From positions 1-31,151 of the IMG/VR virus record IMGVR_UViG_3300045988_085915: a stretch of DNA of 31,151 nt; one strand, 5' to 3'. The notes beneath the pieces are model-generated. The model ran no database searches. It had not been told where the DNA came from and saw only the letters and a program-made list of their open reading frames with translations. Every line of letters begins with the position of its first letter. Positions within the stretch are counted from its first letter, which is position 1. The position numbers and the translations under genes were made by a program. Below are positions 1 through 31,151 of this stretch, in pieces. The DNA is from a virus.

Positions 1-119
1 ACTATCAAACTAAAACTACTTCCATATTGAAAATTGAGCTGGGATTAATTCCCAGTTTAATTTTAACCTTTACTGTAACTTTTTTACTAATATTTTGTAG
101 TAAGATAAATAAAAAAAGT
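1..119. repeat. Terminal direct repeat, identical to 31033..31151. Circular-assembly overlap or short DTR; unit genome 31,032 bp.
   Basis: Positions 1-119 (actatcaaactaaaac...aaaaaaagt) match 31033-31151 base for base by direct comparison. Confidence 0.95.
33..64 (+). terminator. Intrinsic-terminator-like hairpin downstream of the + strand GIY-YIG gene on the circular map
   Basis: Core stem CTGGGA(39-44)/TCCCAG(50-55) with a 5-nt loop. It extends to 12 bp (33-61) using two G-U pairs on the + strand RNA, followed by TTTT. Confidence 0.55.
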
Positions 120-123
120 TACA
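74..123 (+). promoter_or_regulatory. 50-bp inverted-repeat-armed element, copy 1, 34 nt upstream of the helicase-like gene
   Basis: TGTAACTTTTTTA-N24-TAAAAAAAGTTACA with core ACTAATATTTTGTAGTAAG. Exactly 50 nt, as are the copies at 16360 and 25289. Confidence 0.6.
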
Positions 124-157
124 TATAAAATTTATTAACTTATTAAAAATTACTATT

Positions 158-1876
158 ATGAAAACTTATTTAAATAATTTAATCAATGAATTACCTACTA
201 ACTGCTTATTTGACAAAGGTAAAGTAGGATGTGGTGGAACTTCAATGGCTTTAGAGTGTGATAAGCCTTATGTTATATGTGTTCCATTTGTAAGTTTAGT
301 TGAGAATAAACTTGCTCAATATCCTAATGAAAGACGTAAAGAGCCTATTTTTGGAGTTTATCAAGGTGTTACTAAGACAGATATTGAAGCTTATATATCT
401 TCAGTTAAATGCCCTAAAATCATTGTTACTTATAATTCTCTTTATAAAGTAATAGAAGCGGTAAATCCTAAAGATTATAGCCTATTAATTGATGAATATC
501 ATATACTATTTAATCAATATAGTCTTAGAAGAGATGCAATTAAAGATGTATTAAAGACATATAGTCTATTTAAAGAATATACATTTATGACTGCAACTCC
601 ATTAGAAGATGAATTTGTTTTAGATGAATTGTCTAAACTGCCATTAGTAAGACAAGAATGGGATGATGTTATTGAGACTAAAGTTCAGACTGTTAAATGC
701 AAGAATGTAGAAGCTTCCACAATTAAGCTTATAAATGGATTTTTAAGTGGGAATGTTGAAGGTAATGCTTATATATTTGTTAACTCTGTTGACTTTATAA
801 AGAATCTTATTTTAAAGGCTAAACTTACAGCAGATAACACAAGAGTAGTATATTCTAAGAATAATAGAACTAAACTGCCAATTCAGAATTCTTCAGTAAA
901 TGATGAACCTAAGAAGATTAATTTGTTGACTTCTACTGTATTTGAAGGTTCTGATATTTATGATGAAAATGGAAGAATTATTGTAGTTAGTGATTCCTCT
1001 AAAGCTCAGACTCTTTTAGATATATCTACTTCAATTCAACAGATTGCTGGTAGAATTAGAAATAGTAAATATTTAAATTGGATTACTCATCTTTATTCAG
1101 CCACAAGATATGCAGAGATAGATTATGATACATTTAAAAATAATACATTAAAGAATATTGAAGAAACAAAGATTGCAGTTGAATCATATAATCAGCTTCC
1201 AGAAGTAGCTCGTAAGAAGATTACAGACTTTACAAGTGACACATATATTCAAATTAATGAGGATTATACCTTTGAATTTGACCCAAATATGGCTAAAGTA
1301 GATATATTCAATTTTAAGGTTGCAAGAGGTTTATACTCTGTAAGAGTTAATCTTACTAATGAATATCTAAAGAATGGCTTTATAAAGGTTGCTGAATGTG
1401 AAGATAAATCTATTAAGATAGACCTTGAAGCTCCTAGTAAGTCATTTCAGGAGCTTATTAAAGATGTAAGAGCTGAATGGGAAACTAAATTTAAAGTTGG
1501 AACTCCTATATTAAATGAAGCTCTAATTAAATATCCTTGGTTAAATGATGCAATTAATAAACTGGGATTTGAAAGAATGGCAACTTTGGGTTATTGCATT
1601 AAAGATATTAAAGAGGAGCTTGTTAAAATATCAGATAAAAATATGCCAAATAAGGTTGCCAAATTACTTACAAGAGATATTCAGAATGGTATGTTCTACA
1701 ATTTAGCTTTATTGAAGAATAAGATTGCTGATGTATATAAGACTTTAGGTATAAAGAAAACTGCAAAGGCAACAGATATTGAACACTATTTTGAAGTTAG
1801 AAAATCAACTAAAACTGAAAAGGATGTTAGAAGCAAAGGATACATTATTATTAGACCAAGATTCATATTTAAATAG
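158..1876 (+). CDS. SF2 helicase-like NTPase (572 aa); the only obvious replication-type gene
   Basis: Uninterrupted ORF ending in TAG. SF2 motifs by eye: GCGGTS (motif I-like, lacks the Lys), LLIDEYH (DExH), MTATP (III), TSTVFEGSDI (V), QQIAGRIRN (VI). All 4 Trp are TGG. Confidence 0.7.
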   Translation: MKTYLNNLINELPTNCLFDKGKVGCGGTSMALECDKPYVICVPFVSLVENKLAQYPNERRKEPIFGVYQGVTKTDIEAYISSVKCPKIIVTYNSLYKVIEAVNPKDYSLLIDEYHILFNQYSLRRDAIKDVLKTYSLFKEYTFMTATPLEDEFVLDELSKLPLVRQEWDDVIETKVQTVKCKNVEASTIKLINGFLSGNVEGNAYIFVNSVDFIKNLILKAKLTADNTRVVYSKNNRTKLPIQNSSVNDEPKKINLLTSTVFEGSDIYDENGRIIVVSDSSKAQTLLDISTSIQQIAGRIRNSKYLNWITHLYSATRYAEIDYDTFKNNTLKNIEETKIAVESYNQLPEVARKKITDFTSDTYIQINEDYTFEFDPNMAKVDIFNFKVARGLYSVRVNLTNEYLKNGFIKVAECEDKSIKIDLEAPSKSFQELIKDVRAEWETKFKVGTPILNEALIKYPWLNDAINKLGFERMATLGYCIKDIKEELVKISDKNMPNKVAKLLTRDIQNGMFYNLALLKNKIADVYKTLGIKKTAKATDIEHYFEVRKSTKTEKDVRSKGYIIIRPRFIFK

Positions 1877-1940
1877 AATTGCGGATATTAAAGAAACTCT
1901 TAAAAAGTCAGAAGATACTATTAAGGAGTTTGATAAGTGA

Positions 1941-2036
1941 ATGAATGAATTTAAAGAGAATTCTAAGAAATTAGGAGATATTATAGATAGAGTATTAGCA
2001 CAAAGAGATTTTACATTTATTTCAAAATTTGATTAA
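1941..2036 (+). CDS. Small hypothetical protein (31 aa). May extend upstream to ATG 1824 through an in-frame TGA at 1938-1940, giving 70 aa.
   Basis: ATG preceded by AAGGAG (1923-1928); TAA stop. The extended version would overlap the helicase gene by 53 nt. Confidence 0.3.
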   Translation: MNEFKENSKKLGDIIDRVLAQRDFTFISKFD

Positions 2037-2038
2037 TT

Positions 2039-2173
2039 ATGGATGATTTTTTATTTAAAAAGCTTGAAGAACTAGAATATAGAATAGTTCAATTAGAGAA
2101 CCAAAACAAAGGGTTAGTTTGGGAAGAAGTAGAAGAAAAACCAGAGATTCCTAACGCAACATATATTGACTAA
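2039..2173 (+). CDS. Small hypothetical protein (44 aa, acidic, coiled-coil-like)
   Basis: ATG..TAA ORF, MDDFLFKKLEELEYRIVQLENQNKG..., tightly packed after the previous ORF. Confidence 0.35.
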   Translation: MDDFLFKKLEELEYRIVQLENQNKGLVWEEVEEKPEIPNATYID

Positions 2174-2174
2174 T

Positions 2175-2315
2175 ATGAAATACCAAACCTATAAAGTATG
2201 TATAAATGGAGTGTATTATGTATATGTAATACCAGAAAATAGTAAATTCTTAGTAGATTTACAAACTGGAGAATTAATACCTAAAGATGAGAAATTATTT
2301 GAGATAATGGAATAA
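2175..2315 (+). CDS. Small hypothetical protein (46 aa)
   Basis: ATG..TAA ORF, MKYQTYKVCINGVYYVYVIPEN..., starting 2 nt after the previous stop. Last + strand ORF before the bidirectional hairpin. Confidence 0.35.
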   Translation: MKYQTYKVCINGVYYVYVIPENSKFLVDLQTGELIPKDEKLFEIME

Positions 2316-2319
2316 ATGA

Positions 2320-2347
2320 AAATAGGAGGGCATAAACCCTCCTATTT
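2320..2347. terminator. Bidirectional terminator hairpin between convergent + and - strand genes
   Basis: 11-bp stem AAATAGGAGGG / CCCTCCTATTT with a 6-nt loop. It lies between the stop at 2315 (+) and the stop at 2352 (-), with A/T runs on both sides. Confidence 0.7.
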
Positions 2348-2351
2348 CTGT

Positions 2352-2923: not shown

Positions 2924-3376
2924 TTATATAATAGTAAATTTCTGTCGTCTTTGCATTCCGTCTTTATTCTTTAATCCCAAGTGTATTCAACTTGCTATAC
3001 CATTCTTAGGCTTTTCATATATCAACTGGTCTCAATTTAATTCTTCAATAGCTTCAGCAATCCAACTTTGGAATACTTTCATATTACCATTAATTGGAGA
3101 TATATCTGCTGCATACCCTGTTAAATGAGCAGAAGTTGAAGATCCTCCCACTGCTTTATTAAGCTCCTTATTCCTAAAACCAGAGGAAATCCTGATGCCT
3201 GCATTGCCAAGCTGATTGTCATCACAATACTTTGCCCATCTCTCTCTTATTGGGTCTAAAAGCTTCTCGACCAACTCTATCAGGTGCTCTGTTATACTCT
3301 CATCTGGAGTGTTATTTATATGCTTAATTGAAGCAGTATCAGATCTTGTTAATTCTTCGAGTGTGAAATACTTCAT
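2924..3376 (-). CDS. Endolysin, peptidase M15 family (D-Ala-D-Ala / L-Ala-D-Glu peptidase type), 150 aa
   Basis: FTLEEL..S.TA....INN.P, ISSGFRNKELNKAVGGSSTSAHLTGYAADI (SxHxxGxAxD). After TGA 3032-3034 it continues W-DQLIYE...AS-W(TGA 2987-2989)-IHLGL, matching the family's aromatic-DQLI and aromatic-(I/V)H motifs. TAA stop. Confidence 0.85.
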
Positions 3377-3534
3377 TATTTATATGAATTATGCAGTTTA
3401 TAAAGATAAATAAAATAGCACACTGCTCCAAATAACGTTAAACTAATAGTAATCCAAAAAGGAATTACTTTAATTAACAAAAATGCAATCATTAATAGTA
3501 CAACTACTATTACATATTTTAACCAATATTTCAT
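3376..3534 (-). CDS. Holin-like small membrane protein (52 aa, two hydrophobic segments)
   Basis: MKYWLKYVIVVVLLMIAFLLIKVIPFWITISLTLFGAVCYFIYLYKLHNSYK. Its TAA overlaps the endolysin ATG (TAATG). Below the ORF-track size cutoff. Confidence 0.6.
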   Translation of the reverse strand: MKYWLKYVIVVVLLMIAFLLIKVIPFWITISLTLFGAVCYFIYLYKLHNSYK

Positions 3535-3535: not shown

Positions 3536-4192
3536 TTACATCTTATTTAAAATTATACTTATCTGTATTCCAGCTCTTCTTAGATGTACTCAAGTATCAT
3601 AAGGCATAGGTGTATCACAGAATGATAAACCTAAAATGCCAATATCTTTATCCTCAGTCTTTAAATAAAATACTGCTATTTCATTCACTCCGTTGGATTT
3701 AAATGCATAATATAATCTTGGATCATCTGTTTCTAAACTATCTATATTACCAAACCATCCATCATTCTTAGAAAACTCTATAATTGAAGTATAGTCAGAT
3801 AACAGGAAGTCTTTATAATGGCTACTTACAGATCTTATTCCTGGTTTTACTTCCTCTGCATTCATTACTCCATAAGTAAATGGAAGTCCTCCTAATCCAG
3901 TAGTTCCATTATGATATTCAATAACCCAAGCTCTATCAGCATTGGTACTTTGAAGCAATTCTTTAAGCTTATATTTAATCTTCAAAGTTGCTTCATTTCT
4001 TGCAATAGTTTTAGAATTGTGAGTTTGTTCAATATAGGTTACAACCTTATTATAAACAATAGAGGGATTAAGTGTAATAACCATTACATAGGATATAAAT
4101 ATTAATCCAATCCCTGCTTTAAATATCTTTAGTAATCCATATTTATCAACCCATTCTAATACTTTACCAAACCAATTTAATTTATTTTCCAT
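3536..4192 (-). CDS. Membrane-anchored protein of unknown function (218 aa), directly upstream of holin and endolysin
   Basis: Start MENKLNW... overlaps the upstream stop (TAATG). N-terminal TM segment AGIGLIFISYVMVITL. TGA at 3590-3592 extends the ORF by 17 aa to TAA at 3536. Confidence 0.6.
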
Positions 4193-4617
4193 TACATACT
4201 GTCTTGACATAAACCCAGTGTGTTGTCAACTTGGAAATCAGCTCTAACAAACACTCCGCAGGTAATATCTTTGAACTTTTGATAGAATGGAGTATAAATT
4301 AAAGGATAAGCTATTTCAACTTCTGGATATAGGTTATTAAAACGATTAATTATATTTTGCAGTGCAAGCATACCTGCTGACTGTTCCTCCAATTGGTTGT
4401 TATCAGTCTCATCCCATCTTGATACGAAGTATAGGTTTAAAGAGTAAGTAATAGTATCTTCATCTACACTAAAAGTATTAGGTGTTATATAGAACACATT
4501 ATACTCAATAGTTGGTAAGCTATTTAACTCATAAATATCTTTACTTCCTACAAAATTGATGTTTGGCTCTTCTAATGCACAAGCTTTTAAATTGCTAATT
4601 ATCTCATAGTAGGTCAT
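4192..4617 (-). CDS. Hypothetical virion protein, possibly head-tail joining (141 aa)
   Basis: Uninterrupted ORF packed between the adaptor-like gene and the membrane protein. The function is a positional guess only. Confidence 0.5.
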   Translation of the reverse strand: MTYYEIISNLKACALEEPNINFVGSKDIYELNSLPTIEYNVFYITPNTFSVDEDTITYSLNLYFVSRWDETDNNQLEEQSAGMLALQNIINRFNNLYPEVEIAYPLIYTPFYQKFKDITCGVFVRADFQVDNTLGLCQDSM

Positions 4618-4619
4618 AA

Positions 4620-5306
4620 TTACTTACTCTTTTTATTATTACTTGAAGGGAAATCATAAGCTCTTTGAAGAGGTCCCTCTCCAGGTTTAATGCTCCATCC
4701 CTTACCTCTTGCTCCACCAAGCCAAATATTGCAAGATGAGCTAGAATAAAGATTGGGAAACATATCCTTTAATGGCTTATATGTATAAAGCTCAGGGAAT
4801 TCATTATAATATGTAATTATAAAGTCCTGTAAACGAGTCTTAAAGAAATCCGCCTTATCTCTATAATACTTCTTAATTTGATTTACTTGACTTGCTTCAG
4901 CAGCAATATCTTTCTCATCATCAGTTCTCATAACTCCAAAATTACCAAGCTTATAAGATATAGGAATTACTATCTCGCTAAGTACTTGATAAAGTAAATA
5001 AGGCTGAACATAATAGTCTAATAGCTCTTTATATCTGTAGTTATCAGAATCATCAATAGAATCACTTGGAAGTGGCTCAGGAGGCTCTATTGGATGAACT
5101 GGGGTATGAGGATCAATCCAATTAATACATTTCTTTTGTAATGCTTCCAATAGCTTAGTACCAATAGTTGACTGAAGTTCTACATCTTGTGCCAACTTAA
5201 TTGCTGATTGAAGATACTTGCCAGAAACATTATTGTCTAAATTAGATTCAGATTTGATATAATCTTCACTAATTAGAAGTACATTTCTAAAATCCATTTG
5301 TTCCAT
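4620..5306 (-). CDS. Putative head-tail adaptor / connector-like protein (228 aa from ATG 5306)
   Basis: ORF immediately after the portal stop (5308). The N-terminal pattern LISEDYIKSESNLDNNVSGKYLQSAIKLAQDVELQSTIG resembles gp6-like connector N-termini. Assignment is weak. Confidence 0.5.
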   Translation of the reverse strand: MEQMDFRNVLLISEDYIKSESNLDNNVSGKYLQSAIKLAQDVELQSTIGTKLLEALQKKCINWIDPHTPVHPIEPPEPLPSDSIDDSDNYRYKELLDYYVQPYLLYQVLSEIVIPISYKLGNFGVMRTDDEKDIAAEASQVNQIKKYYRDKADFFKTRLQDFIITYYNEFPELYTYKPLKDMFPNLYSSSSCNIWLGGARGKGWSIKPGEGPLQRAYDFPSSNNKKSK

Positions 5307-5307
5307 A

Positions 5308-6390
5308 TTATTCAACTATTTTAGAATCAGCTGTATCTAAGCTAAATGGGGTAATTGTGATAGAATTCTTCATACCAAAGATTTTGTCAAATGTATCACA
5401 AATATCTTTTTGCATAGGTTTAATCATCGTTCTATTATATAGTTTAAATGATGAATTAAACTCTTGCTCATTAAATCCAGTAGAATCAGAGTTTATTCCA
5501 AATAAGTTAGGATTAGCTCTAAATGCGCAGAATATCTGTTCTCTTGTCCTATCAGATAAAGCACTATATTTCTCATCAAAATCATCAGAGTCTAAACGCT
5601 CAATAGTAGTCTTATTTGTTTCATCATCATTATATGAAATAAGAACTCTGCCAGCATTTTGAAATCCTGAGAATTTCTCATTAATATTCATCTCAATCTC
5701 TTCTTTAACTTCATCTGTAGGCTGTCCATTATTAAAGTTAATGATAAGATTGCCCATAAATCCATTATGAAGAGAATTTAGATGGAACTCATTAATATTC
5801 TTCTCAGTTTCGCAAGATAAGATAGCTGCACCATAAACAGGGACTGGATATACTTTTCTTGTTATATAGCCCTTATTATAAACAACGCTTGTAGGATTAT
5901 CGTCTGAATAATTAAATTTTGGATATTTGATAGCTTTAATAGACCAAGCAGACCAATCATCAGCATAATAGAATACTTCATTCTTTTCATCAGAACGAAT
6001 CTTCATAAAGTCAAGATGGTATATTTCTGAAACTCTACCTAACATATCTCTAATTATTTGTAAAGCATATCCTCCAAAAATCATCTTATCTTTAGATACT
6101 TTACGCATAATATCCATAATAGTTTCACCTTTCTTATTTACAGTTACTTCAAATCCTGGTGCATTACATATAACATCATTACCAACAATAAAGTCAGCAG
6201 TCCCATTAATGATAGATTGAAGAGTAGCTACATTTAAATATAAATCCCATAAATATACAGGATAGCGATTATCTTCACCCCAAGAAATATAGTCCTTACC
6301 TCTAACTTTACCTTCTACTGGCAATACGATGTTTGATACAATTACTGGATCAATTGCACTTAATTGTACTTTTGTTTTATTTTCGCTCAT
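5308..6390 (-). CDS. Portal protein (360 aa from MSENKTK)
   Basis: Size and motifs (YPVYLWDLY.NVATLQSIINGTADFIVGN, acidic C-terminal half) resemble small PBSX-type portals. No TGA; 4 TGG. Confidence 0.65.
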   Translation of the reverse strand: MSENKTKVQLSAIDPVIVSNIVLPVEGKVRGKDYISWGEDNRYPVYLWDLYLNVATLQSIINGTADFIVGNDVICNAPGFEVTVNKKGETIMDIMRKVSKDKMIFGGYALQIIRDMLGRVSEIYHLDFMKIRSDEKNEVFYYADDWSAWSIKAIKYPKFNYSDDNPTSVVYNKGYITRKVYPVPVYGAAILSCETEKNINEFHLNSLHNGFMGNLIINFNNGQPTDEVKEEIEMNINEKFSGFQNAGRVLISYNDDETNKTTIERLDSDDFDEKYSALSDRTREQIFCAFRANPNLFGINSDSTGFNEQEFNSSFKLYNRTMIKPMQKDICDTFDKIFGMKNSITITPFSLDTADSKIVE

Positions 6391-6769
6391 AAGCCGTATA
6401 TTTGTTTTGTTTATCGTATTGGTATTTATTATTCTGATAATCTCCAATTCTTATTAATCCTGTTCCCAATATAGGTATAGGTTTACCAGCAACTAATATC
6501 TGTGTTCCTGTAGTAAGAGTATTTTCATAAGTTACCAGAATAACTGGATTGCCATATAACTCTGATCTAAATGGATTGTTTACATCAACTATAACTTGAA
6601 ATTTATTTGGATTAGTAAATAAAATATATTGATATTCACCGTCTCTCATTCCTTCTTGAAGTGTAATATCAAACTTATAGTAGATATTCTCAGAATAATT
6701 CTGATTTTCAAGATTAAATGTATAAACTTCTTTAGTAGTTGTATTTTGCATTAATAAAGTATAATTCAT
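6377..6769 (-). CDS. Hypothetical protein (130 aa)
   Basis: Uninterrupted ORF, first gene after the terminator at 6847-6870; overlaps the portal start by 14 nt. Confidence 0.5.
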   Translation of the reverse strand: MNYTLLMQNTTTKEVYTFNLENQNYSENIYYKFDITLQEGMRDGEYQYILFTNPNKFQVIVDVNNPFRSELYGNPVILVTYENTLTTGTQILVAGKPIPILGTGLIRIGDYQNNKYQYDKQNKYTAYERK

Positions 6770-6870: not shown

Positions 6871-6922
6871 ATGTCAAGTTTTTTACTCACTCAAAGTACT
6901 AAGAAAAAATAAAAACTGACAA

Positions 6923-7894
6923 TTAGTTTGAACTTGCTAAAGTTCAGTTTTTAGATGTGGCTAATGATTTCTGTTCCTCAGTAAGTGCATTATAAACGTT
7001 AGTATAAAAAGTTAAAGTTTTGGTATCCTTTCCAGTTAAATCACTAACATTTGTAATAATATCAGTTACTGATTGACTATTTAGTGCTCTAAAATTTGCT
7101 AAATTCATACTTTTATCAGCTCCTTCAACACCCCCAAAATAAGTAACAGTAGTATTAGCAAATGCACATATTGAAGTTTTATTTAGATCTTCTGTTAATG
7201 TGCAATTATTTAATTTAATTTTTCCTACTGTTGTAACACCCTCATTATATGAACTAAAGTAATAATATAAAGATAGTTGTCCATTAATAACTTCAATTTC
7301 AGGAACATTACTGCTAACAGAATAAAAGAAAAATTGTAAAGATGATACACCAGTATCAACTTCATTTATCACTTTTAAAGTAGTTGGTAAATTAGAAGCA
7401 TTAAAGAATGTTCTTGTTGCATAATTTCAACTAGAGGATAAGGTATTAATTAATTCTAAATTATTTAGTATGCCTTGAAATCCAGAAAATGTGTACGAAT
7501 TCCCAACACTAGTTCTTATATTATCAATATATATATTATATGTGTTTTGGAAGGCATATGATGCGTCATATACTTTAGACAGATCAATATGACTTGATAT
7601 ATCTATTGTAGATATGAAATTAGTCCCATCAAATCAATGATTTATATTATCTGGAAGAGAATATTCTATATTATTATATTGCTCTTGTGTCATACTAGAA
7701 TATGCAAATGTTAATCCATAATCATTTAAATTAACCTTTCCTCCACCACCTCCAGAAATCTGTCCTATCTTATCTGCATAGCTTCTAAAGGTATCGGAAT
7801 CTGATATAGCAACACCTTTAGCTACAATAGCATCTTTAATGGCACTCTTAGTACCTTCAAGATACGTTAATTTATCAGAAATTGTATTTGCCAT
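6923..7894 (-). CDS. Receptor-binding / tail-fiber protein with BspA-like (DUF285-type) leucine-rich repeats, paralog 3 (323 aa)
   Basis: Three in-frame TGA (7634-7636, 7427-7429, 6944-6946) join the track ORFs. N-terminus MANTISDKLTYLEGTKSAIKDAIVAKGV is a common fiber N-terminal motif. C-terminal LTEEQKSLATSKN-TGA aligns with KNW (TGG) in the two paralogs. Confidence 0.75.
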
Positions 7895-7895
7895 A

Positions 7896-8549: not shown

Positions 8550-8551
8550 AA

Positions 8552-8788: not shown

Positions 8789-8790
8789 AA

Positions 8791-9912: not shown

Positions 9913-9913
9913 A

Positions 9914-12346: not shown

Positions 12347-12347
12347 A

Positions 12348-13522: not shown

Positions 13523-13568
13523 TTTCTATAAAATATAAATAGTTAATTATCTGTCCATAAACAAAATA

Positions 13569-13596: not shown

Positions 13597-13606
13597 CTTT
13601 CTGTTA

Positions 13607-14131: not shown

Positions 14132-14169
14132 ATAATTTCAATCTTATTTAAAGTTAAACTCTATTGAAA

Positions 14170-15075: not shown

Positions 15076-15097
15076 AATTTTATAAATAATTTAATAA

Positions 15098-22546: not shown

Positions 22547-24727
22547 TTATTTACGATAAGTATCTTGAGAAGCTTCTACATTAATTGTATAATAGAACTT
22601 GTTTTTACCTTGATTAGTATAAGTTTTATATTCACAATTTGTATCTGTAATCAATACTGGAGTGATAGTATTATCTTTAAGATTATGCAAATATACTTTG
22701 GTACTCTCAATTAGATTAAACATCTTAGAAGCTTGAATATCATTTAAATAACCAGTATAAAGAACCCAGCTTGAAGTTATAGTATTCAAATACTTATTTC
22801 TTGCAAACTCTTGTGATGTATTTAATACCTTACGAGTATATGTTTCAGATTTAATCTCATCATTCTTTTTAACATTACCCTCAACAAGTAATGAATCTCA
22901 TCCACCTGCTGAATTAGTATAATATAACACATAATCTTTACCTGTAGTATCTATATCATATCTAATCTGTCTATCACTAATATTTCCACCTTCTACAAAT
23001 CCTACTATTAAATAGCTTCCACAAGGCCATAATTTATTACTTAAATCTTCTGTATATGTATATCCATTAATTCCAGAATTTAAACTAATATCCATAGCAG
23101 ATTGTACTCCATCTATATAAAAGAATCTATTAATAACTCCAGTTCCAGTTGGTAGAATTCAACTTGATACTAAATACTGCCTTGGATCAACTAAACCAGT
23201 AATAGGATCACTTAACATAGTGCCTTTAGTTAGATCTCTATCTTTATAACTCCAGTCATTGAAGAAAGTAATTGGTTTTTCATTTCCACTAGATGTTATC
23301 AAAGTAAATGGTTTCAAATATTCTGGAGATATTATAGTTTTAGAAGTATTAAATATAATACCGTTAGATAGATAATTTTCAGCTACATTATTTAATAGAA
23401 ACTCTACTCTATCTGTTTCAGGATATTTATAAGCCTTGCCAGCATAAACCATTTCTCCTGCATAATCTAGATGATATTCAATAAAATCAGAACTGATAAT
23501 TTCTTCCCAAACATAATCTTTCCAAATAGGAGATATATCAGATTTAACAGATTGTGTAATATTAATAGATAAATTAATAATACTTGAACTATTCTTTATA
23601 ACAGATACTCCAATAGTTGCTTGTCTAGAAGATAAACCTGAATTTTCTGCAATGTTCAAACTAATAGTTGCTACACCTTGAGGATTCACAGAGAACTTCT
23701 GACCACTAATCCAACCTACAGGAATACTAAATACAACATCATCTAAGTTATTTGAGCCTGTACCAATTATATTTAATGTAGATGCAGTTCAACTTACTTC
23801 ATAATTAGTATTAGGAATCACTAAAGATGTTGCAGCTTGTTTAATTGGAACTGTAGCTTCAAGAGTATAACCTCCAGAAGTTGTTGCAGTAACCATTGCA
23901 CTAAACTCTAAATTATTAGTAGTTTTATTCTCTGGAACAGTTAATACAAAATAGTTATCAACAATATCCTTTTTAATATTACTAGCTTGAGGGCAGGTAA
24001 CATTAAATGAGGTAATTGTTTCTTCTGCTTTAGTTGTACTTAAATGGAATTCTTCAGTAACAAAAGCAGATGCTCCATAAGTTCCAGATGAAGGAGTTAC
24101 TATTAGCTTTAAATCTTCTGGAGTATTACTTTTTTCAATTTTAAAGCCGTAACTATAACTAATAAATTTATTAGTATCATAATAAGCTCCTAATTGAATA
24201 GTTCCAATTAAATCTGTATTTCATTGAGTATTAGCTCTTACTGTGAATTTAAACTTAATAGAGCAAGAATCCCATTCTAATACCTCAACACTCACTAAAG
24301 CAGTAGCATTTACTACATCACAAGTTCATTTAATAATATCTGCTCTATTTAATATATATTCAACAGTATAGGTACCTCCAGTATTGGGCACTGTTATACT
24401 GCCATTTGCAGGATAATATCCAGGAGCTTGACTATGAAGATAAACTGGCATAGTATCTTCTAATTGAACAGTAGTCAGTCCTTTTGGGTATAATCTAAAT
24501 ATTGTAGAAGAGTCTGTTGTAATAGTTGAGGGATTTGTAAAGTTAATAGTACAACCACTTGTACTTGCATTAGAAATAGTAACATCTAATGGACCCTCTT
24601 CTGAATAGTCATCTCCTCATAGCCAATAATCATATACTCCTGTAAGACCTCATCCTGGATTTTCCCATTTAACAGGATATGTTCCTGTACTTCTTGGTAT
24701 TCCTAATTTACTTGGTATAAATGTCAT
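22547..24727 (-). CDS. Tail structural protein (726 aa): N-terminal Ig/BACON-like repeats plus a C-terminal distal-tail-like domain
   Basis: ATG at 24727. I translated 24727 to 23630 and 22900 to 22787 directly; the intervening stretches are track ORFs in the same frame. There are 7 in-frame TGA. Fragments 23159..23689, 22898..23095 and 22547..22789 share the frame. TAA stop 2 nt before the next ATG. Confidence 0.75.
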
Positions 24728-24729: not shown

Positions 24730-25218
24730 TTAAAAGTCTTTAAATAAATAATAATCTACTTGTCCTTGTAAGTCTTTAGTTATAGCATCATCAAGAAGTT
24801 CCATATAGTTGTTCTCTATATATTCTATAGTATTAGCAAGTGGATATTTTCCTTGAGTTCCTTGAAGATGTATCTTTCTTCCAATTAAATATGCAAGTTG
24901 ATCTACAGTAGGTAACTTGCCATTATAAGGTCTTGGAATTACTGGCTTAGTTTTAATCCAACTCTTTATATCAGATAATGGAGGAAATTTACCAGCAGCT
25001 CTGCCTTCTTCAACATATTCTCAATAATCTAATAAGCTAAAATTAACCTCATATTCTCCATCTTGAGTCTCAACTATATAGTTTAAACTATTACCTAATG
25101 CTCCAGTGTCATCAGATCTGGTTTTAACTAATTCCTGTCTATAAAGAGAAATTATAAGATCTCCTCACTTCCTTAATAGCTCACTTAAATTTGAGAACTT
25201 TAATTCTTGAATATTCAT
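24730..25218 (-). CDS. Virion morphogenesis / tail completion-like protein (162 aa); first gene of the tail operon
   Basis: Absent from the ORF track because of two in-frame TGA (LRK-W-GD, LDY-W-EY). The YWEYVEEGRAAGKFPP..IKSWIKTK pattern is reminiscent of HK97 gp10-like proteins, but this is weak. Confidence 0.55.
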
Positions 25219-25258: not shown

Positions 25259-25285
25259 AAAATAGGGAGGTTTACTCCCTATTTT
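25259..25285. terminator. GC-rich hairpin in the leader between element copy 3 and the tail operon start
   Basis: 11-bp perfect stem AAAATAGGGAG / CTCCCTATTTT with a 5-nt loop; 3 nt from the 50-bp element and 41 nt from the ATG at 25218. Confidence 0.55.
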
Positions 25286-25288
25286 ATA

Positions 25289-25338
25289 TGTAACTTTTTT
25301 ATATTATCTTAGTACCAAATATGAGTAAAAAGGTTACA
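25289..25338 (-). promoter_or_regulatory. 50-bp inverted-repeat-armed element, copy 3 (core in - orientation), upstream of the tail operon
   Basis: Its reverse complement, TGTAACCTTTTTACTCATATTTGGTACTAAGATAATATAAAAAAGTTACA, aligns with copies 1 and 2 over its whole 50 nt. Confidence 0.6.
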
Positions 25339-25482
25339 GTTAATGTTTTCTTTTTCATTCTTCAATCTGTCTATTTTCTTCATTAGCTTTATCTATAACA
25401 TAGCATATAAGATTCAGGAACTCTTTAATCTGCATATCATATATCTGATGCCAATTAAATCTGGTAACTTCACTTACCTTAT

Positions 25483-26124
25483 CTATTCAGATAATTCAGC
25501 TTCATTTTTGAGTAAAAGGATTAATCGTCTCGTCTGTATTAAGCTCTTCAGAAGTTTCCTCCTTTCCAGTTTGTCCCTTGTTTTCCTTAGTCTCTTCTTC
25601 ATCTCCCTTTCCGAAGAGTGTAGGGTACTCAGCGTTGATACTTGCAATAAGTTTACAAAAAAAAACATTATGTCTGAAAATATATCTATTGTTAGATGAG
25701 TATTTAAGAATTCTGCCTCATCAATAGGGTCATAATCTTCTCCATACTTCTTTCCATTAGGTAGCAAGAAACAAGCTGCTAGATTAGGCATAAAATCATC
25801 ATACTGCTTATAAAAATTCTGAAAGTCAATATATTGACTGGCCGTCATCTTATTAACATTAAAAAAGACTTTATATTCTTTATTACCAATATTATAAGTA
25901 GTTTCTGGAGTTTTTGGCTTATAGGGGGTCTCTATAAATTTAAGATTATTTATAAACTCTTGTAGCTTGTTTACTTCCATATTAGTTATATCTTCTATAG
26001 GTATATCACTAAGTACAGATACCATAGCTAAATTCATATCTAATTCATTTTCCCAGTCTTTTCGTATTATCTCAAACAGTCTTTTATAATGAGATAAATT
26101 CATTTCATTCCAAGATTTTATCAT
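25483..26124 (-). CDS. Hypothetical protein (213 aa) downstream of TerL
   Basis: Uninterrupted ORF ending in TAG, with a basic C-terminal tail (KKRLRKTRDKLERRK). No confident family assignment. Confidence 0.55.
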   Translation of the reverse strand: MIKSWNEMNLSHYKRLFEIIRKDWENELDMNLAMVSVLSDIPIEDITNMEVNKLQEFINNLKFIETPYKPKTPETTYNIGNKEYKVFFNVNKMTASQYIDFQNFYKQYDDFMPNLAACFLLPNGKKYGEDYDPIDEAEFLNTHLTIDIFSDIMFFFVNLLQVSTLSTLHSSEREMKKRLRKTRDKLERRKLLKSLIQTRRLILLLKNEAELSE

Positions 26125-26125
26125 A

Positions 26126-27409
26126 CTATTTAAATTTAATATTATAATGTCCTTTAGTTGTATTTAATGAGTCATAGGCTAGCATTAATGAAATTACTGT
26201 ATCATCATTAAATCCAGATGGAGCATTATAACTAACATTTCCAGTTTTTGGATTATATGAAGCTTCATATAGTCTTAACTCATTTAAAAGTTTATCATCT
26301 TTTAATAATCCTATCTTTTCATTCTCCAAAGCAGCTTGAAGCTTATTTACAATAGCTGCTTTAGACTTATTAGTAGTTAAAAACTTAACTATCCGTAATT
26401 TAGGATTCCTTTTTACAAGAATATCATAAAACACTGAACCTATTGAGTTTTGTTCAACTTGAACTATCTTTATAAATCCCTGATACTCAGTAAATATATT
26501 TGTCAGTAAATCAACTTGTTCTGTTGGAGTTTTGTCGTTAAAATACTTTATAAAGACCATCTGCCCATTTTCATTTAAAGCTGTAATACAAGTATAGTCT
26601 TTACCAGAACCAGTAGCCCAGTCAACTCCAATATAGAGATTATGATATTCAGGTTTTTTATCAATTATACAGTTAGCTATATTATTAAATAGGCAACCAT
26701 CATCATCTGCAAACTCTCCAAGATATTCAGTTCTAAATTTATTTTTGGAGGTTGTAAGGCGATACATTTCAAGTTTATCCTCACTTAACAGCATAGAAGT
26801 ATCTTCTAATGCTCAATCAAAGGATTGATAATATTTACTAAAATTACCATCAAAGCCTTTTTTAAAGCATTCATAAAAGAATCCTTCTCTAAACCTTGGA
26901 GTACTAATTATAAGTATTGGAGCATTCCATACATCAGCGATAGGTGTTAAAATTTCGTATACTTCATCTGATATATAAGCTGCTTCGTCAATTACTAATA
27001 TTCCACTAACTGTAAATCCTCGTAATGAATCTTTTTGCTCAGCAGATTTAAATAGTATTTCACTCCCATTAGTAAATTCAATCTCAAGCAAAGATTCATT
27101 CTTTTTCTTAATAATATCTGTGCCATCTAATGCCTTTACTAACTCTTTAAATATCTTTCTGGAGTTAGTAAGAGTTGGTTCAACAATACAGCTAATACTT
27201 CCAGGATAGTTAATTGAAAATCGTAATAGTTCATTTTCTGCCATAAAGGATTTACCACATTGTCTCTTTGCTTTTACAGTAAATATTTTTCCAGACCTAT
27301 AAGAGTGCTCTAAAGCAGTATGTACCTTTAATTGATAGATAAATGGGCTATATCCTTTATATATTTTTGTCATTGTTAATTGGATCTCCAAATTTAAACT
27401 GGACTTCAT
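26126..27409 (-). CDS. terL: Terminase large subunit (427 aa; alternative start ATG 27373 gives 415 aa)
   Basis: Walker A-like KRQCGKSF and Walker B-like ILVIDEAAY; nuclease half with GVDWATGSGKDYT and FNDDTV. An in-frame TGA at 26813-26815 joins track ORFs 26813..27409 and 26126..26794. Confidence 0.85.
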
Positions 27410-27809
27410 TATTCTGAATAGCTACAATAGTCTCAGGTTGATTTAATCCAAACATACTATTTATAGTCTTAATAATCTCATTTGCAGCTCTAATATCTCC
27501 CTTACTAATAGCAGTATCCAGTAATGATTCCAATCTTGATAATTGTATATGTCTAAGATTTTTTATAAGGTTATCATTCTTTTCAGCAATTATCTTATAA
27601 GCTTCTCCAATATATCTTGCAGCCGTTGATTGGCTTACATTATATTTACTTTGAAGTTCTTCACTTACTTTATTCCTTGACCATCCTTTGTTAAATAACC
27701 TTGCAGCATAAAGATATTTAGTCTTTACTTCGTCTATTTGATTCTCTTTTACCTCTTCCTTTCTTGGCCTCCCTGTTTTCTTCGGCAGTTCCTGATTCTT
27801 TACTTTCAT
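27357..27809 (-). CDS. terS: Terminase small subunit-like protein (150 aa)
   Basis: Basic N-terminus, HTH-like WSRNKVSEELQSKYNVSQSTAARYI, and a coiled-coil middle; immediately upstream of and overlapping TerL. Confidence 0.55.
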   Translation of the reverse strand: MKVKNQELPKKTGRPRKEEVKENQIDEVKTKYLYAARLFNKGWSRNKVSEELQSKYNVSQSTAARYIGEAYKIIAEKNDNLIKNLRHIQLSRLESLLDTAISKGDIRAANEIIKTINSMFGLNQPETIVAIQNNEVQFKFGDPINNDKNI

Positions 27810-28053
27810 TTTCCTTTAGTTTTTCTTGATATTCAAAATAGATTGGGGCAATCCTCTTTATAAGATTAAGTATACAAGTAGCACAAGCTACGCTCATTCT
27901 ATATTCTTGTTCAATTAAACATTCATAAATCTCTTTAAGCTTAATTACATCCTGCTTTTGTACATTTCTGCAATAATTAGACTTAGTTGCAGTTACAAAT
28001 CTATCTTCAAATCCTCTTAAATATTTAAACTGCTCTTCTGTTAATTGTTTCAT
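27718..28053 (-). CDS. Hypothetical protein (111 aa)
   Basis: ORF from ATG 28053 (MKQLTEEQFKYL). Its C-terminal 30 aa overlap the TerS start in another frame. Confidence 0.45.
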   Translation of the reverse strand: MKQLTEEQFKYLRGFEDRFVTATKSNYCRNVQKQDVIKLKEIYECLIEQEYRMSVACATCILNLIKRIAPIYFEYQEKLKENESKESGTAEENREAKKGRGKRESNRRSKD

Positions 28054-28142
28054 AATTAGCACTTTTTAGTATAAGTAAATATAGAAATTAACTTTCCATT
28101 CTTGTAGTGATAAATAACTTCTGTTTCCATAAAATATAATTT

Positions 28143-28472
28143 TTAATCAATAAGTTTGTATATAACATCTATCAGCTTAGTAGATGCATCTTTTAATAAT
28201 ATCATAATATCTTTAATAATTGGAGTCATAAATGCTAATAGTGCAATATATCCAACCATTAAAATTGAAAATTGACTTGTAATAAGAATATATATTAATC
28301 CAATTCACCAAGTCATACATAAACTGCAATCTAAAGGTTTTAGTCTTCAATCTTCTTTATAAGGCATACCTTTAAATAGTCTTTTTCAAATACTATGTTT
28401 AAAACTATCCAAAGCCCCAGATAAATCAATTATAAAGACTATTATTACTGCTATTATAAATAATTCTAACAT
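28143..28472 (-). CDS. Small integral membrane protein with a CxxC motif (109 aa)
   Basis: Invisible to the ORF track because of three in-frame TGA. Hydrophobic N-terminus, KPLDCSLCMTW-W(TGA)-IGLIYIL, second TM segment. TAA stop. Confidence 0.5.
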
Positions 28473-28711
28473 AATCTCTCTCTTATTTGTTTAATAAATC
28501 TTTGAATTGTAGTATGACTAATTCCCAATATTTTTCCCACTTCTCTATAACTGTGATATTCAGCATATAATATGATTACTGTCTTATCTGCCTTATTAAG
28601 CTCAAGTCATTTTGGATATATACTTAATAGTCTATCATCCATATTTGTAAACATACTATAGTCTATTTCATACTCAGTAAGTAAATCGTCAATATTAATC
28701 TTCCGTTTCAT
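28466..28711 (-). CDS. Sigma-70 region-4-like HTH protein (81 aa); C-terminal half of a split ECF-like sigma factor
   Basis: LELNKADKTVIILYAEYHSYREVGKILGISHTTIQRFIKQIRERL matches the region 4.2 pattern. One in-frame TGA; TAG stop. Confidence 0.6.
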
Positions 28712-29003
28712 TTAATCAATCCTCCAATTCGTCATTTTGTTGTTCAAGTGGTTCTTTAACAATCTCATAATATTTCTTATAGGTATAGTAATATCTACTT
28801 GTTTTACTAAACCAATAATTCTTAAATAATCTTGTAATCCAAAATTTCAATTCATTTTTGCTATCAAGCTGATTTAATTTTGGATTTGAATACTCTAGTA
28901 TTTCTACAAAAATCATTTGAACACAGTCATCATCTGCACCAAATTTTTGCTTAAGTTCCATAATAAATGGATAGTACTTTTCTACAATTTCGTTATTACT
29001 CAT
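28695..29003 (-). CDS. Sigma-70 region-2-like protein (102 aa); N-terminal half of a split ECF-like sigma factor
   Basis: IVEKYYPFIMELKQKFGADDDCVQMIFVEILEY...LKFWITRLFKNYWFSKTSR follows the ECF region 2.1-2.4 pattern. The TGA at 28716-28718 adds 7 aa before TAA. Confidence 0.55.
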
Positions 29004-29490
29004 ATGTTCACATATATCCTCCTGCTGTTTTTCGCTGCCCTTTAAGAACCTTTACAATATTTCTAGATTGTATATTTAGTTCTCTCTCAGCATCTATTGC
29101 TGAATCCCATCTTTTAATAACTATTCCATTTAGTAATTGCAGTATTGGTTTCTTATGACTATATCCAGCTCGCAGATTATGAGTTCCATAATTATTATTA
29201 TAATTATAAGTACACCATTCTAAATTACTTACATTATTATTTGATTTATTTTCATCCTTATGATTTATACAAGGATAGTTATTCGGATTAGATATAAAAG
29301 TTTCAGCTACTAATCTATGTATATAACACTTCTTTTTCAAATTTTTATTATATAATGTTACTGTAAAGTACCCATTAGTTTTTACTTGAGGTTTTAACCT
29401 CTTTGGAACTGATGCTCTTAAACTTCATATTGAGCCATCAGTTCCAATTTGGTAGTTTTCAAAATTAAGTATTCTTTTATAGGCTATCAT
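28996..29490 (-). CDS. HNH homing endonuclease with NUMOD4 N-terminus and IENR1-like C-terminus (164 aa)
   Basis: FENYQIGTDGSI-W(TGA)-S (NUMOD4), YIHRLVAETF..NHKDENKSNNNVSNLEW (HNH_3), and GGYM-W(TGA 29008-29010)-TYE at the end. Confidence 0.85.
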
Positions 29491-29914
29491 TTGCTATATA
29501 ATTACTAAATTCTGTATTTACATCTATCTTAATGGCTTTCTTTAAAGACAACTCTGTTTTTAATGAATAGCCATAAGTTCCTCCAAAATCTGTTGTAGAA
29601 CAACCATATTTCATAGAATCCTTTATAAAGGCTTGTTTTATATCTTTAAATATATATACTCCATCATCAAATATTATTACTAATATAGAATTATTTCTTG
29701 ATAGCATATCAAATTTATCCCTGTTTATAATTGTAGTTGGATATTTATCTGATTTAAATCTTCTCCTTTTAACTTCAATTATATAGTCTATATTATTCCA
29801 AGTAAATGTTCCATCATATCTGGAATAATCGTCTTTACATCATTCTATTTCTATATTATATTTATCTTTAAATAGATTCTTTATAAAGACTAAACTTCTT
29901 ATATCTGTTTTCAT
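29477..29914 (-). CDS. PD-(D/E)xK-like nuclease candidate (145 aa)
   Basis: ATG 29914 overlaps the upstream stop (TAATG). One in-frame TGA (EIE-W-CKDD). D...IDYIIEVKRR resembles a D-(D/E)xK core. Confidence 0.45.
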
Positions 29915-30153
29915 TATCTTACATTATGAATTTTTAAGGTTACATCACAATACTGTTCATATAATTCAGATACTTCTGAACTTCCAGGATTATACCACAT
30001 TACAGAGTCTAATTTATGCTGAAGTTCTGCCTGTTCTAATCTAAGCTCAAATGTTTTAGTTTGGTAGTCTCCATAAGCATTATATACTCTAATACCAGCT
30101 ATAATAAAGCTAAGTACTAATAATCCAGCTAATATTTTATTTATCTTTTTCAT
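29914..30153 (-). CDS. Small membrane-anchored protein (79 aa from MKKINKIL)
   Basis: N-terminal hydrophobic anchor ILAGLLVLSFIIAGI. The track ORF extends further upstream, but the ATG at 30153 is the likely start. Confidence 0.45.
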   Translation of the reverse strand: MKKINKILAGLLVLSFIIAGIRVYNAYGDYQTKTFELRLEQAELQHKLDSVMWYNPGSSEVSELYEQYCDVTLKIHNVR

Positions 30154-30164
30154 AATTAAATATA

Positions 30165-30344
30165 TTAGAAAGAAATACCTAAACCAAAAAACCAAGAGGA
30201 TTTCTTTACCTTTTCATTGGTTTCAATCTCCTTTAATGCCTCATTACATAATTCTTGAGCTTTCTCAATAGAACCATCTTCAGTAATCTTACCATCTAAT
30301 ATATCAAGAAAATATTCAAGTGCTTCAATTTGTTTAGTTTTCAT
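30165..30344 (-). CDS. Small hypothetical protein (59 aa); first gene of the long - strand array
   Basis: ATG..TAA ORF MKTKQIEALEYFLDILDGK..., just below the track cutoff, directly downstream of the divergent promoter region. Confidence 0.4.
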   Translation of the reverse strand: MKTKQIEALEYFLDILDGKITEDGSIEKAQELCNEALKEIETNEKVKKSSWFFGLGISF

Positions 30345-30384
30345 AATTTATAAAGTTTAATTGTTAATATTATGTCTTACTTTC

Positions 30385-30404
30385 ATAGTACAAATATACA
30401 ACAA
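30385..30404 (-). promoter_or_regulatory. Promoter-like 20-mer TTGTTGTATATTTGTACTAT (- strand) upstream of the - strand array
   Basis: Exact 20-nt match to the + strand copy at 31018-31037. It contains TATATTTG, which fits the Bacteroidota -7 consensus TAnnTTTG; 40 nt upstream of the ATG at 30344. Confidence 0.5.
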
Positions 30405-30442
30405 AAAATTCATATTTCCAAATATTTTTTCATTTATTTTTC

Positions 30443-30473
30443 TTGCATAATTAAAAAATTATTCATATATTTG
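30443..30473 (+). promoter_or_regulatory. Promoter-like site for the + strand GIY-YIG gene
   Basis: TTGCAT, 17 nt, TATATT. The same bases read TATATTTG (30466-30473), 20 nt before the ATG at 30494. Confidence 0.5.
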
Positions 30474-30493
30474 CAATATGAAAATAATAAACT

Positions 30494-30982
30494 ATGAAAG
30501 GGTATATTTATAAAATAACGAATACAATAAATAATAAGTGTTATATTGGTCAAACTAGAACTAATATTAACAAAAGATGAAATAAACATAAGTTTGTAAG
30601 TACAGATCCAAGTAATAAAGCCTATAATTATCCATTATATAATGCTTTTAGAAAATACGGAATAGATAATTTTAAATGAGAAATATTAGAGGAATTAGAT
30701 GATAATTTAGACGATTTAATTATAAAGCTAAATAATCTTGAAATATATTATATATCTAAATATAATTCCCTAAATAATGGATATAATCAAAATAAAGGCG
30801 GAAATATAGTAGTTCAAACTTTAGAAAATAAATATAATGTATCTAAGGGAAAGAGACAATACTTAGGCTCTTTTGATAGATGTTTTGAAATCTACTATAT
30901 GGAACCATCGGCATTAGATTTATATGAATCAGATAAACTACTAAGTTTTAGTGAGTTAGAATTTTGACCAAAAATTTATTAA
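30494..30982 (+). CDS. GIY-YIG homing endonuclease (162 aa)
   Basis: GYIYKITNTINNKCYIGQT (GIY..YIG), NKR-W(TGA)-NKHK, NFK-W(TGA)-EILEE and EF-W(TGA)-PKIY. Missing from the ORF track because of these three TGA. TAA stop. Confidence 0.85.
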
Positions 30983-31017
30983 AAATAATGCTTAAATTAT
31001 TTGGAGATTGAGAAAAA

Positions 31018-31037
31018 TTGTTGTATATTTGTACTAT
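31018..31037 (+). promoter_or_regulatory. Promoter-like 20-mer TTGTTGTATATTTGTACTAT (+ strand), pointing toward the helicase module across the circular junction
   Basis: Exact inverted copy of 30385-30404; lies 36 nt after the GIY-YIG stop and upstream of the 33-64 hairpin. Confidence 0.45.
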
Positions 31038-31151
31038 CAAACTAAAACTACTTCCATATTGAAAATTGAGCTGGGATTAATTCCCAGTTTAATTTTAACC
31101 TTTACTGTAACTTTTTTACTAATATTTTGTAGTAAGATAAATAAAAAAAGT
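31033..31151. repeat. Second copy of the 119-bp terminal repeat
   Basis: Identical to 1-119. It includes a truncated duplicate of the hairpin and of 50-bp element copy 1, so these are the same locus, not extra copies. Confidence 0.95.

Follow-up and report, generated by a model that had tools for sequence, protein, structure and literature searches.

A complete 31-kb gut phage genome in which TGA is read as tryptophan: a single recoded clade near Alistipes prophages with decoding apparently supplied by the host

Introduction

The IMG/VR virus record IMGVR_UViG_3300045988_085915, whose complete sequence of 31,151 nt is referred to here as the window, raises the question of how a small phage can use the stop codon TGA within its genes, which amino acid this codon specifies and who supplies the means to read it. 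The initial annotation, made from the sequence alone, had proposed that the whole genome is translated with TGA as tryptophan (code 4). Our results are best explained by a complete gut-phage genome in which UGA specifies tryptophan and UAA and UAG are the sole stop codons, which belongs to one clade close to Alistipes prophages and which depends on decoding supplied by its host (probability about 0.85). Recoded gut phages have been described previously (Ivanova et al., 2014; Yutin et al., 2021, for crAss-like groups; Borges et al., bioRxiv 10.1101/2021.08.26.457843), and TGA recoding is the rarer variety, found in 6 of 1,899 viral operational taxonomic units with terminal repeats in Dutch cohorts. 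The type of recoding is thus already known, and what is added here is the tryptophan identity, the origin in a single clade beside Alistipes prophages, and a gene-selective use of TGA in a minimal genome that carries no tRNA.

A complete genome with reading frames that run through TGA

Positions 1 to 119 of the window are identical to positions 31033 to 31151, an exact match over 119 nt, and the record therefore represents a complete genome composed of a 31,032-bp unit and a 119-bp direct terminal repeat. The GC content is 30.1%, and the source is a tailed double-stranded DNA phage of the human gut. No match for the window was obtained by megablast against GenBank phages, and hundreds of relatives are present in human-gut assemblies. 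Counting stop-to-stop open reading frames of 100 aa or more, coverage of the window is 78.8% under the standard code and hardly changes when TAG is taken as sense (79.2%), but it reaches 93.5% when TGA is. With TGA as sense, 39 genes account for 95.8% of the DNA, 34 larger ones that form our main gene set and five small ones. Their 10,002 codons include 48 in-frame TGA, in agreement with the approximately 48 bridging codons noted before, and neither TAA nor TAG, while TAA and TAG together occur 726 and 1,027 times in the two off-frames of the same genes. The chance probability of a 1118-codon frame free of TAA and TAG is about 8e-34. All 39 genes end in TAA or TAG, as had been claimed (30 TAA and four TAG in the larger genes, TAA in the five small ones).

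In the intervals that had been translated codon by codon in the initial annotation, the gene frame contains TGA as the only stop codon or no stop at all, most of these intervals ending one base short of an in-frame TGA, and the five TAATG overlaps reported at 3376, 4192, 12569, 19188 and 29914 were all found. The description of a gap-free map with junctions of 1 to 4 nt was borne out for 17 of the 36 same-strand junctions, which lie within 4 nt, but not for the remaining intergenic gaps of 84 to 264 nt, which hold terminator hairpins and a repeated element. Likewise, TGA is indeed a sense codon throughout the genome, but its use is gene-specific, as only 20 of the 39 genes (51%) contain at least one TGA. 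These comprise tail, tape-measure, fibre, lysis, terminase, protease, homing-endonuclease and early-operon genes. Code 4 is a reading rule and says nothing about who supplies the decoding.

If the TGAs were instead genuine stops, whether in fragmented genes or pseudogenes, as assembly errors, at selenocysteine sites or with occasional readthrough, the truncated products yielded by public code-11 pipelines would be accounted for. Public versions of the M15 peptidase, for example, are 114, 127 and 129 aa long and named 'putative chitinase', while the full-length protein has 150 aa, and the lengths of 114 and 129 aa correspond to truncation at TGA codons 115 and 130 under the standard code. However, TGAs at identical positions are found again in about 100 stretches of relatives that were assembled independently, in-frame TAA and TAG are absent, and homologs align across every TGA. 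In addition, essential tail genes would fall into up to 12 pieces, and 48 sites in tryptophan columns do not fit selenocysteine. We consider pseudogenes, sequencing error and selenocysteine to be excluded for practical purposes, and genuine termination at these codons is extremely improbable. Some public gene calls on this contig already use code 4 and others cut proteins at TGA; this genome and its numerous gut relatives are mis-annotated under code 11, with their tail genes split accordingly.

TGA specifies tryptophan

The 1118-aa tail protein (19188–22544, minus strand), which has 11 in-frame TGAs and a weak viral BACON match, was used for a homology search with X placed at the 11 TGA positions. 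More than 900 homologs were found, many of them aligning end-to-end across all 11 sites, and some lie on standard-code contigs and are translated without any TGA; the possibility that proteins truly end at the TGA positions is thus contradicted by homologs that run across them. At the 11 sites, 120 homologs most commonly carried tryptophan or other aromatic residues and never glycine. Since some of the homologous proteins had already been called under code 4, the comparison was moved to the DNA of the relatives' loci. In 92 related loci, the codons opposite the 47 TGAs in the main gene set were TGG (748), TGA (687), tyrosine codons (195) and phenylalanine codons (91), and glycine codons were absent among the 15 commonest. 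When only the 49 related loci without in-frame TGA were considered, which constitute the standard-code set with 766 aligned cells, the residue opposite the window TGA was W in 353, Y in 116, L in 54, F in 46 and G in 14. Several columns were invariantly tryptophan, including one in the tail protein (47/47), one in the prohead protease (TGA 15849–15851; 44/44) and one in a 109-aa protein (31/31). Tryptophan was also found in 39 of 45 standard-code relatives at site 66 of a 162-aa protein, in 14 of 22 at the TGA site of the large terminase, and in the standard-code relatives at the GYI-W-KY site of the NUMOD1 gene.

These tabulations uphold the earlier preference for tryptophan over glycine. The motif contexts that had been quoted in its support for the HNH, GIY-YIG and M15 proteins were all found in the translations, and the spelling of a shared C-terminal KNW motif in three paralogs was correct in part: AAA AAC TGG is present in the gene at 12569–13522 and AAA AAC TGA at 6944–6946, but the paralog at 8791–9912 reads AAG AAT TGG. 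The use of TGA as glycine (code 25) in an Absconditabacteria or Gracilibacteria host would have a basis in the presence of such bacteria in human and rumen microbiomes and in the sharing of their code by their phages (Liu et al., 2023, PMC10746230), and like those phages the window has in-frame TGA in many genes and would obtain its decoder from the host. However, the glycine count given above is far below that of tryptophan, TGA is exchanged with TGG and not with GGN, and several columns are invariantly tryptophan; moreover, TGA occurs in about 51% of the genes here and not in about 90%. Code 25 is therefore likewise excluded for practical purposes. TGA almost certainly means tryptophan in this phage, and we regard it as settled that UGA is read as tryptophan by the ribosomes of the infected cell.

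A single recoded clade beside prophages of Alistipes

The occurrence of in-frame TGA follows the relationships among the phages. In the tail gene, sampled relatives with at least 47% identity have 2 to 11 in-frame TGAs and a GC content of 27–36% (mostly about 30%), while sampled relatives with at most 43% identity have none at any GC content, and a neighbour-joining tree places all TGA-using genomes in a single low-GC clade. Of 847 gene ends in the recoded clade, one was followed by TGA as the first stop, compared with 29 of 119 in standard-code relatives. Judged from these sequence comparisons, the recoding is common to one low-GC clade inside a standard-code phage family. The nearest standard-code relatives are on average about 40% identical, and the sister group consists of low-GC standard-code phages that include prophages in Alistipes (Bacteroidales). 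Among these, L002 and L003 represent one and the same prophage-host junction, recovered from separate assemblies. It is flanked by a PPIase identical in sequence to WP_087404663.1 ('MULTISPECIES [Alistipes]'), the cluster of the PurT protein includes A. onderdonkii, and the GC content changes at the junction from about 60% in the host to about 27% in the prophage. Within L003 1–8000, prophage DNA of 22–34% GC adjoins Alistipes DNA of 59–64% GC with a boundary near position 2400, an unusually large phage-host difference. More distant relatives reside mostly in Bacteroidales metagenome-assembled genomes.

Features of the window itself point in the same direction. Shine-Dalgarno-like motifs precede only 4 of 34 genes (about 10% in relatives), and the motif TTTG-N19-21-TAnnTTTG is found upstream of both divergent early units, although promoter and Shine-Dalgarno arguments on the host are indirect in AT-rich DNA. 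Weak matches of tail and fibre proteins to viral BACON domains and BspA-type leucine-rich repeats (LRR) also fit a Bacteroidota host. An M15 peptidoglycan peptidase together with a holin-like gene implies that the host is walled. The host is thus likely to be a Bacteroidales bacterium, and it is fairly probable that this bacterium uses the standard code.

Phages of mycoplasmas are adapted to the native code 4 of their hosts. A wall-less host from Mycoplasmatales, the classical code-4 group, would agree with the low GC content, with TGA as tryptophan, with a phage tRNA being unnecessary, as in phages of Mycoplasma and Spiroplasma, and with the few Shine-Dalgarno sites. It is nevertheless very improbable, in view of the lysis cassette, in which the M15 peptidase alone carries two TGAs, the integration of the sister lineage in Alistipes, the conserved Bacteroidota-type promoter motifs and the weak BACON and LRR matches. 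In addition, TGA is the minority tryptophan codon here despite 30% GC.

The recoded clade is common in human-gut assemblies, where it forms clusters of 118–389 member sequences. A 148.6-kb IMG/VR contig was considered as a possible host contig and rejected, as walking upstream revealed head-to-tail units of about 29.85 kb each. This 'viral genome' is a concatemer of about five copies of a relative of that size (L189 3423–5498 matching L029 21363–23438, IMGVR_UViG_3300045988_175865) and therefore gives no information on the host. The 175.8-kb human-gut ENA contig L116 is probably a concatemer of the same kind. The early-operon proteins and the terminase of L029 are 95–100% identical to those of the window, but identity is only 60–68% for both large tail proteins and for the proteins of 162 and 213 aa, and 73% for the helicase, indicating strong mosaicism within the recoded clade.

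Uneven use of TGA

The tryptophan codons of the 34 main genes consist of 47 TGA and 68 TGG, TGA thus making up 41%, and in the other A/G codon pairs of these genes 65–88% end in A. The head and helicase genes contain 0 TGA and 21 TGG and the rest 47 of each (Fisher p = 4e-6, for a post hoc grouping). Across the clade, in codon counts that are not phylogenetically independent, the TGA/TGG numbers were 2/188 for the capsid, 3/129 for the tail-tube candidate, 0/35 for the scaffold, 2/74 for the portal, 2/115 for the helicase (35 distinct sequences) and 0/21 for the 79-aa early gene (distinct sequences), while TGA accounted for 30–97% of the tryptophan codons in tail, tape-measure, terminase, lysis and several early-operon genes. 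In a rumen subclade, TGA reached 54% of the tryptophan codons. Neither of the two genes that directly follow a host-type promoter contains TGA, and the second gene of the leftward early operon lacks it as well. This gene-specific avoidance shows that TGA, once reassigned, is not on a par with TGG, which constrains models of how reassignments spread, and the decoding of TGA seems to be costly or delayed.

The TGA-free head genes do not appear to be recent imports from standard-code phages, since the standard-code loci closest to the window have a mean identity of about 40%, and full-length identity of the capsid proteins does not exceed about 67%. In L047, the closest free-living standard-code relative (27% GC), the tail protein encoded at 10001–12802 has only 5 W among 934 residues, compared with approximately 15–25 elsewhere, and carries F or Y in place of conserved W. 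This scarcity of tryptophan may be an alternative response to AT pressure on TGG.

Source of the decoding

No credible tRNA was detected in the window by ARAGORN in default and relaxed modes, and none in Rfam at E≤10. The relaxed ARAGORN mode gave only low-scoring hits, which lie within coding sequence and which we judged spurious, among them a mitochondrial-type 'tRNA' (anticodon TCA) in the gene at 3536–4210. Likewise, no tRNA gene was found in 102 loci of relatives, 96 of them TGA-using, and pairs of these loci jointly cover at least seven further whole genomes. Searches of Pfam, PHROGs and NCBIfam gave no release-factor, tryptophanyl-tRNA synthetase or other translation domain among the proteins scanned, which did not include the tape-measure protein, the 810-aa fibre and several genes of less than 80 aa. 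With neither a phage tRNA nor such a domain found, the agent that reads UGA most likely comes from the infected cell. In these respects the window differs from phages that carry machinery for a code change, whether a suppressor tRNA, a release factor or a tryptophanyl-tRNA synthetase.

In a standard-code Bacteroidales host, termination at UGA would be weakened and a tRNA-Trp would read the codon. Such a host is the explanation we favour, with moderately good odds, because of the host assignment and the lack of code-4 Bacteroidota in two surveys, because TGA occurs in 51% of the genes and is missing from the first early genes, and because there is a precedent in TGA-recoded phages, of which only 35% had a detectable suppressor tRNA. 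Concerning the route, a small early protein could neutralise RF2, so that the host tRNA-Trp(CCA) would then read UGA; alternatively, the host tRNA-Trp might be modified or edited, or a suppressor might be provided by another resident element. Candidate factors would be the TGA-free, clade-specific first early genes at 30165–30344 and 29914–30153 or other uncharacterised early proteins; sequence searches of Pfam, PHROGs, NCBIfam and PDB gave nothing useful for the TGA-free and uncharacterised early proteins. No clade-specific gene resembling recoding machinery was found. Most genes of the early operon, beginning with the 102-aa gene and continuing to the terminase, have counterparts in standard-code relatives and therefore do not look like a clade-specific recoding factor, the exceptions being the 59-, 79- and 145-aa proteins, the last of which is itself encoded with a TGA. 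That UGA is decoded as tryptophan independently of any phage tRNA by a route not described so far, in a standard-code Bacteroidales bacterium and with up to 11 UGAs per gene, is an idea we put forward tentatively and with the odds against it; if true, a 31-kb phage of such a host reads efficiently through up to 11 UGAs in one gene.

Several observations weigh against decoding supplied by a Bacteroidales cell that itself uses the standard code. No decoding agent was identified, and its mechanism is therefore inferred. No host DNA was seen for the recoded clade, as its contigs were all phage-only or concatemers. Although the capsid genes belong to the late class, they avoid TGA, which is opposite to the late-gene enrichment described in the literature. 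Conversely, TGA is present in genes of the leftward early operon, in which no terminator-like site was found after the host-type promoter, and this is awkward for a code switch that would take place only after early expression in a standard-code cell. Finally, C directly follows TGA in 5% and TGG in 12% of cases; C is thus depleted and not enriched after TGA, which gives no hint that a context favouring leaky termination was selected for.

The missing tRNA and the TGAs in early genes would be explained more simply by a host that uses code 4 itself, lacks RF2 and possesses a UGA-reading tRNA-Trp, and to which the phage has merely adapted. Judged from the promoters and the phage family, this host would be an unrecognised Bacteroidales-like lineage. 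It would account for the lack of a tRNA in the window and in the 96 TGA-using loci, for TGAs in every functional module including the early operon, for the practical absence of TGA terminators in the clade, for the lack of a readthrough-favouring context after TGA and for early-operon genes that, having standard-code homologs, do not resemble a clade-specific recoding factor. However, two genome-wide surveys place code-4 bacteria only in Bacillota, Pseudomonadota, Verrucomicrobiota, Actinomycetota and Patescibacteriota and none in Bacteroidota, and since the clade is abundant in gut assemblies, its host should already be represented in genome catalogues. Moreover, TGA makes up just 41% of the tryptophan codons at 30% GC and is used in 51% of the genes, while phages of recoded hosts have the recoded codon in about 90% of their genes on average (Borges et al., bioRxiv 10.1101/2021.08.26.457843), and TGA is avoided throughout the clade in the helicase and the first early genes. 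We therefore consider a code-4 host unlikely. The window shares with code-4 bacteria, such as Mycoplasmatales, Hodgkinia, Zinderia, Nasuia, Stammera, genera of Eggerthellaceae (Parks et al., 2026) and Patescibacteriota JAKLIH01, the same reassignment, a low GC content and the disuse of TGA stops, but these are cellular genomes defined by the loss of prfB, usually with a tRNA-Trp(UCA), and none belongs to Bacteroidota.

A standard-code host would be in line with the proportion of recoded genes in other recoded gut phages. In stop-codon-recoded gut phages of standard-code hosts, 26–71% of the genes are recoded, the recoded codon is enriched in late genes, and a suppressor tRNA is detectable in only 35% of the TGA-recoded genomes (Borges et al., bioRxiv 10.1101/2021.08.26.457843). 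Like the Lak, Agate, Jade, Garnet and Topaz phages, with which the window was compared by description only, it has a low GC content, a stop codon that serves as sense in roughly half of the genes and not as a terminator, standard-code relatives and a probable Bacteroidales host. Its size is close to the approximately 34 kb of the Garnet clade, which includes a Prevotella prophage (Borges et al., bioRxiv 10.1101/2021.08.26.457843). The agreement with the published timing is partial: TGA is missing from the helicase and from the first two genes of the leftward operon and is present in tail and lysis genes, but it also occurs in later genes of the early operon and is avoided in those for capsid, portal and scaffold. 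The clade thus represents a compact case of the open question of how a stop codon is read as sense without a detectable suppressor tRNA. The question is tractable here with approximately 40 genes, no tRNA, standard-code sister prophages for comparison, a probable host genus that can be cultured (Alistipes or related Bacteroidales) and a clean, conserved split between TGA-free and TGA-using genes.

Gene content and other features of the genome

The two divergent early units are each preceded by a Bacteroidota-type promoter consensus. The rightward copy, TTTG-N20-TAnnTTTG at 31000–31031 (plus strand), lies upstream of the early gene at 158–1876, is kept in 19 of 20 relatives although the spacer sequence varies, and pairs with 30374–30404 as a 31-nt inverted repeat. 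The leftward copy at 30391–30422 (minus strand) precedes the leftward early operon and is kept in 19 of 23 relatives. Sigma-70-type promoter-like sites were not enriched. The gene at 158–1876 (plus strand; 0 TGA, 4 TGG) encodes a 572-aa protein without a sequence match in Pfam, PHROG, NCBIfam or PDB that is predicted to fold as a superfamily-2 helicase, since its AlphaFold model (pLDDT 82) was matched by Foldseek to RecQ, DEAD-box and HSV UL9 helicases. A homolog with 45% identity is present in the chromosome of Hymenobacter sp. J193 (Bacteroidota). Three small open reading frames of uncertain gene status follow on the plus strand (1824–2036 with TGA 1938–1940, 2039–2173 and 2166–2315), for which homologous stretches exist in 31–33 recoded loci, and a terminator hairpin at 2319–2348 (minus strand) separates the convergent plus and minus units.

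The genes from here to the leftward early operon are all on the minus strand. A NUMOD1 homing-endonuclease-like protein of 189 aa (2352–2921; TGA 2604–2606 and 2364–2366; Pfam NUMOD1 E=3e-10) is followed by the 150-aa M15 peptidase, the putative endolysin (2924–3376; TGA 3032–3034 and 2987–2989; Pfam Peptidase_M15_3 E=2.5e-13). The peptidase also matches the D-Ala-D-Ala carboxypeptidase 1LBU in PDB (E=6e-4), but this alignment stops before both TGA sites and is therefore unusable for a column check. A largely hydrophobic, holin-like protein of 52 aa (3376–3534; 0 TGA) is encoded with a TAATG overlap with the endolysin gene, and the adjacent 224-aa protein (3536–4210; TGA 3590–3592) has a hydrophobic N-terminal stretch and only a weak PHROG hit. 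The head-assembly block at 4192–6769 contains no TGA and encodes proteins of 141 aa, 228 aa (DUF6712, E=8.5e-14), 360 aa (portal; Phage_portal, E=1e-15) and 130 aa; its TGA fraction across the clade is 0.00–0.06. The fibre block (6923–13522) comprises three paralogs at 6923–7894 (three TGAs), 8791–9912 (one) and 12569–13522 (one), the 810-aa fibre at 9914–12346 (one), a 217-aa coiled-coil protein and two genes of about 75 aa. A C-terminal ..EQK..A.(S/N)KNW tail is common to the three paralogs, as is a weak match to BspA-type LRR, and two of them are preceded by the paralogous ~75-aa genes (8552–8788 and 12348–12569), which suggests that the block consists of duplicated fibre-plus-accessory cassettes.

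Beyond a terminator hairpin at 13568–13597, a block without TGA (13607–15700) encodes a 174-aa tail-tube candidate, its role being assigned from position, the major capsid protein (14170–15075), members of whose cluster are named 'Major capsid protein' in NCBI, and a scaffold-like protein (15098–15700). The XkdF-type prohead protease (15714–16307; Pfam Peptidase_S78_2 E=6e-9) is followed by a 922-aa protein (16420–19188; TGA 18193, 17719 and 16639), considered tape-measure-like from its length, position and composition, by the 1118-aa tail protein with its full-length homologs, and by a tail protein of 726 aa (22547–24727) with seven in-frame TGAs. A 162-aa protein (24730–25218; TGA 25165–25167 and 25021–25023) has a weak PHROG 5 match and is neck/tail-completion-like. 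The segment at 25483–27409 encodes a 213-aa protein (0 TGA) and the large terminase (26126–27409; TGA 26813–26815; Pfam Terminase_6N and Terminase_6C).

The leftward early operon (27357–30344, minus strand) has nine genes, which in the order of transcription encode proteins of 59 aa (0 TGA), 79 aa (0) and 145 aa (1), an HNH protein (28996–29490; 2), proteins of 102 aa (1), 81 aa with a helix-turn-helix/sigma-region-4 match (1), 109 aa, hydrophobic (3), 111 aa (0) and 150 aa (0). At codon 25 of the 145-aa gene the TGA is nearly fixed, with 27 relatives having TGA and two TGG. A GIY-YIG homing endonuclease is encoded on the plus strand at 30494–30982 (TGA 30578, 30677 and 30965; Pfam GIY-YIG E=6e-9). 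The window therefore holds three homing endonucleases, of the NUMOD1, HNH and GIY-YIG types, all heavy users of TGA. In a 96%-identical relative (L001 9529–10008 and 16412–17014), HNH and GIY-YIG genes are located elsewhere, namely between the pair of large tail genes and between those for protease and scaffold, which indicates that the homing endonucleases are mobile within the clade.

A repeat of about 60 nt occurs at 65–131, 31097–31151, 16351–16409 and, inverted, 25281–25347, with a partial copy at 6880–6915. It has symmetric ends (GTAACnTTTTT ... AAAAAnGTTAC), is always intergenic and adjoins a terminator hairpin, and one copy sits in the terminal repeat. It is probably a regulatory site of the phage, promoter- or operator-like, and separate from the recoding.

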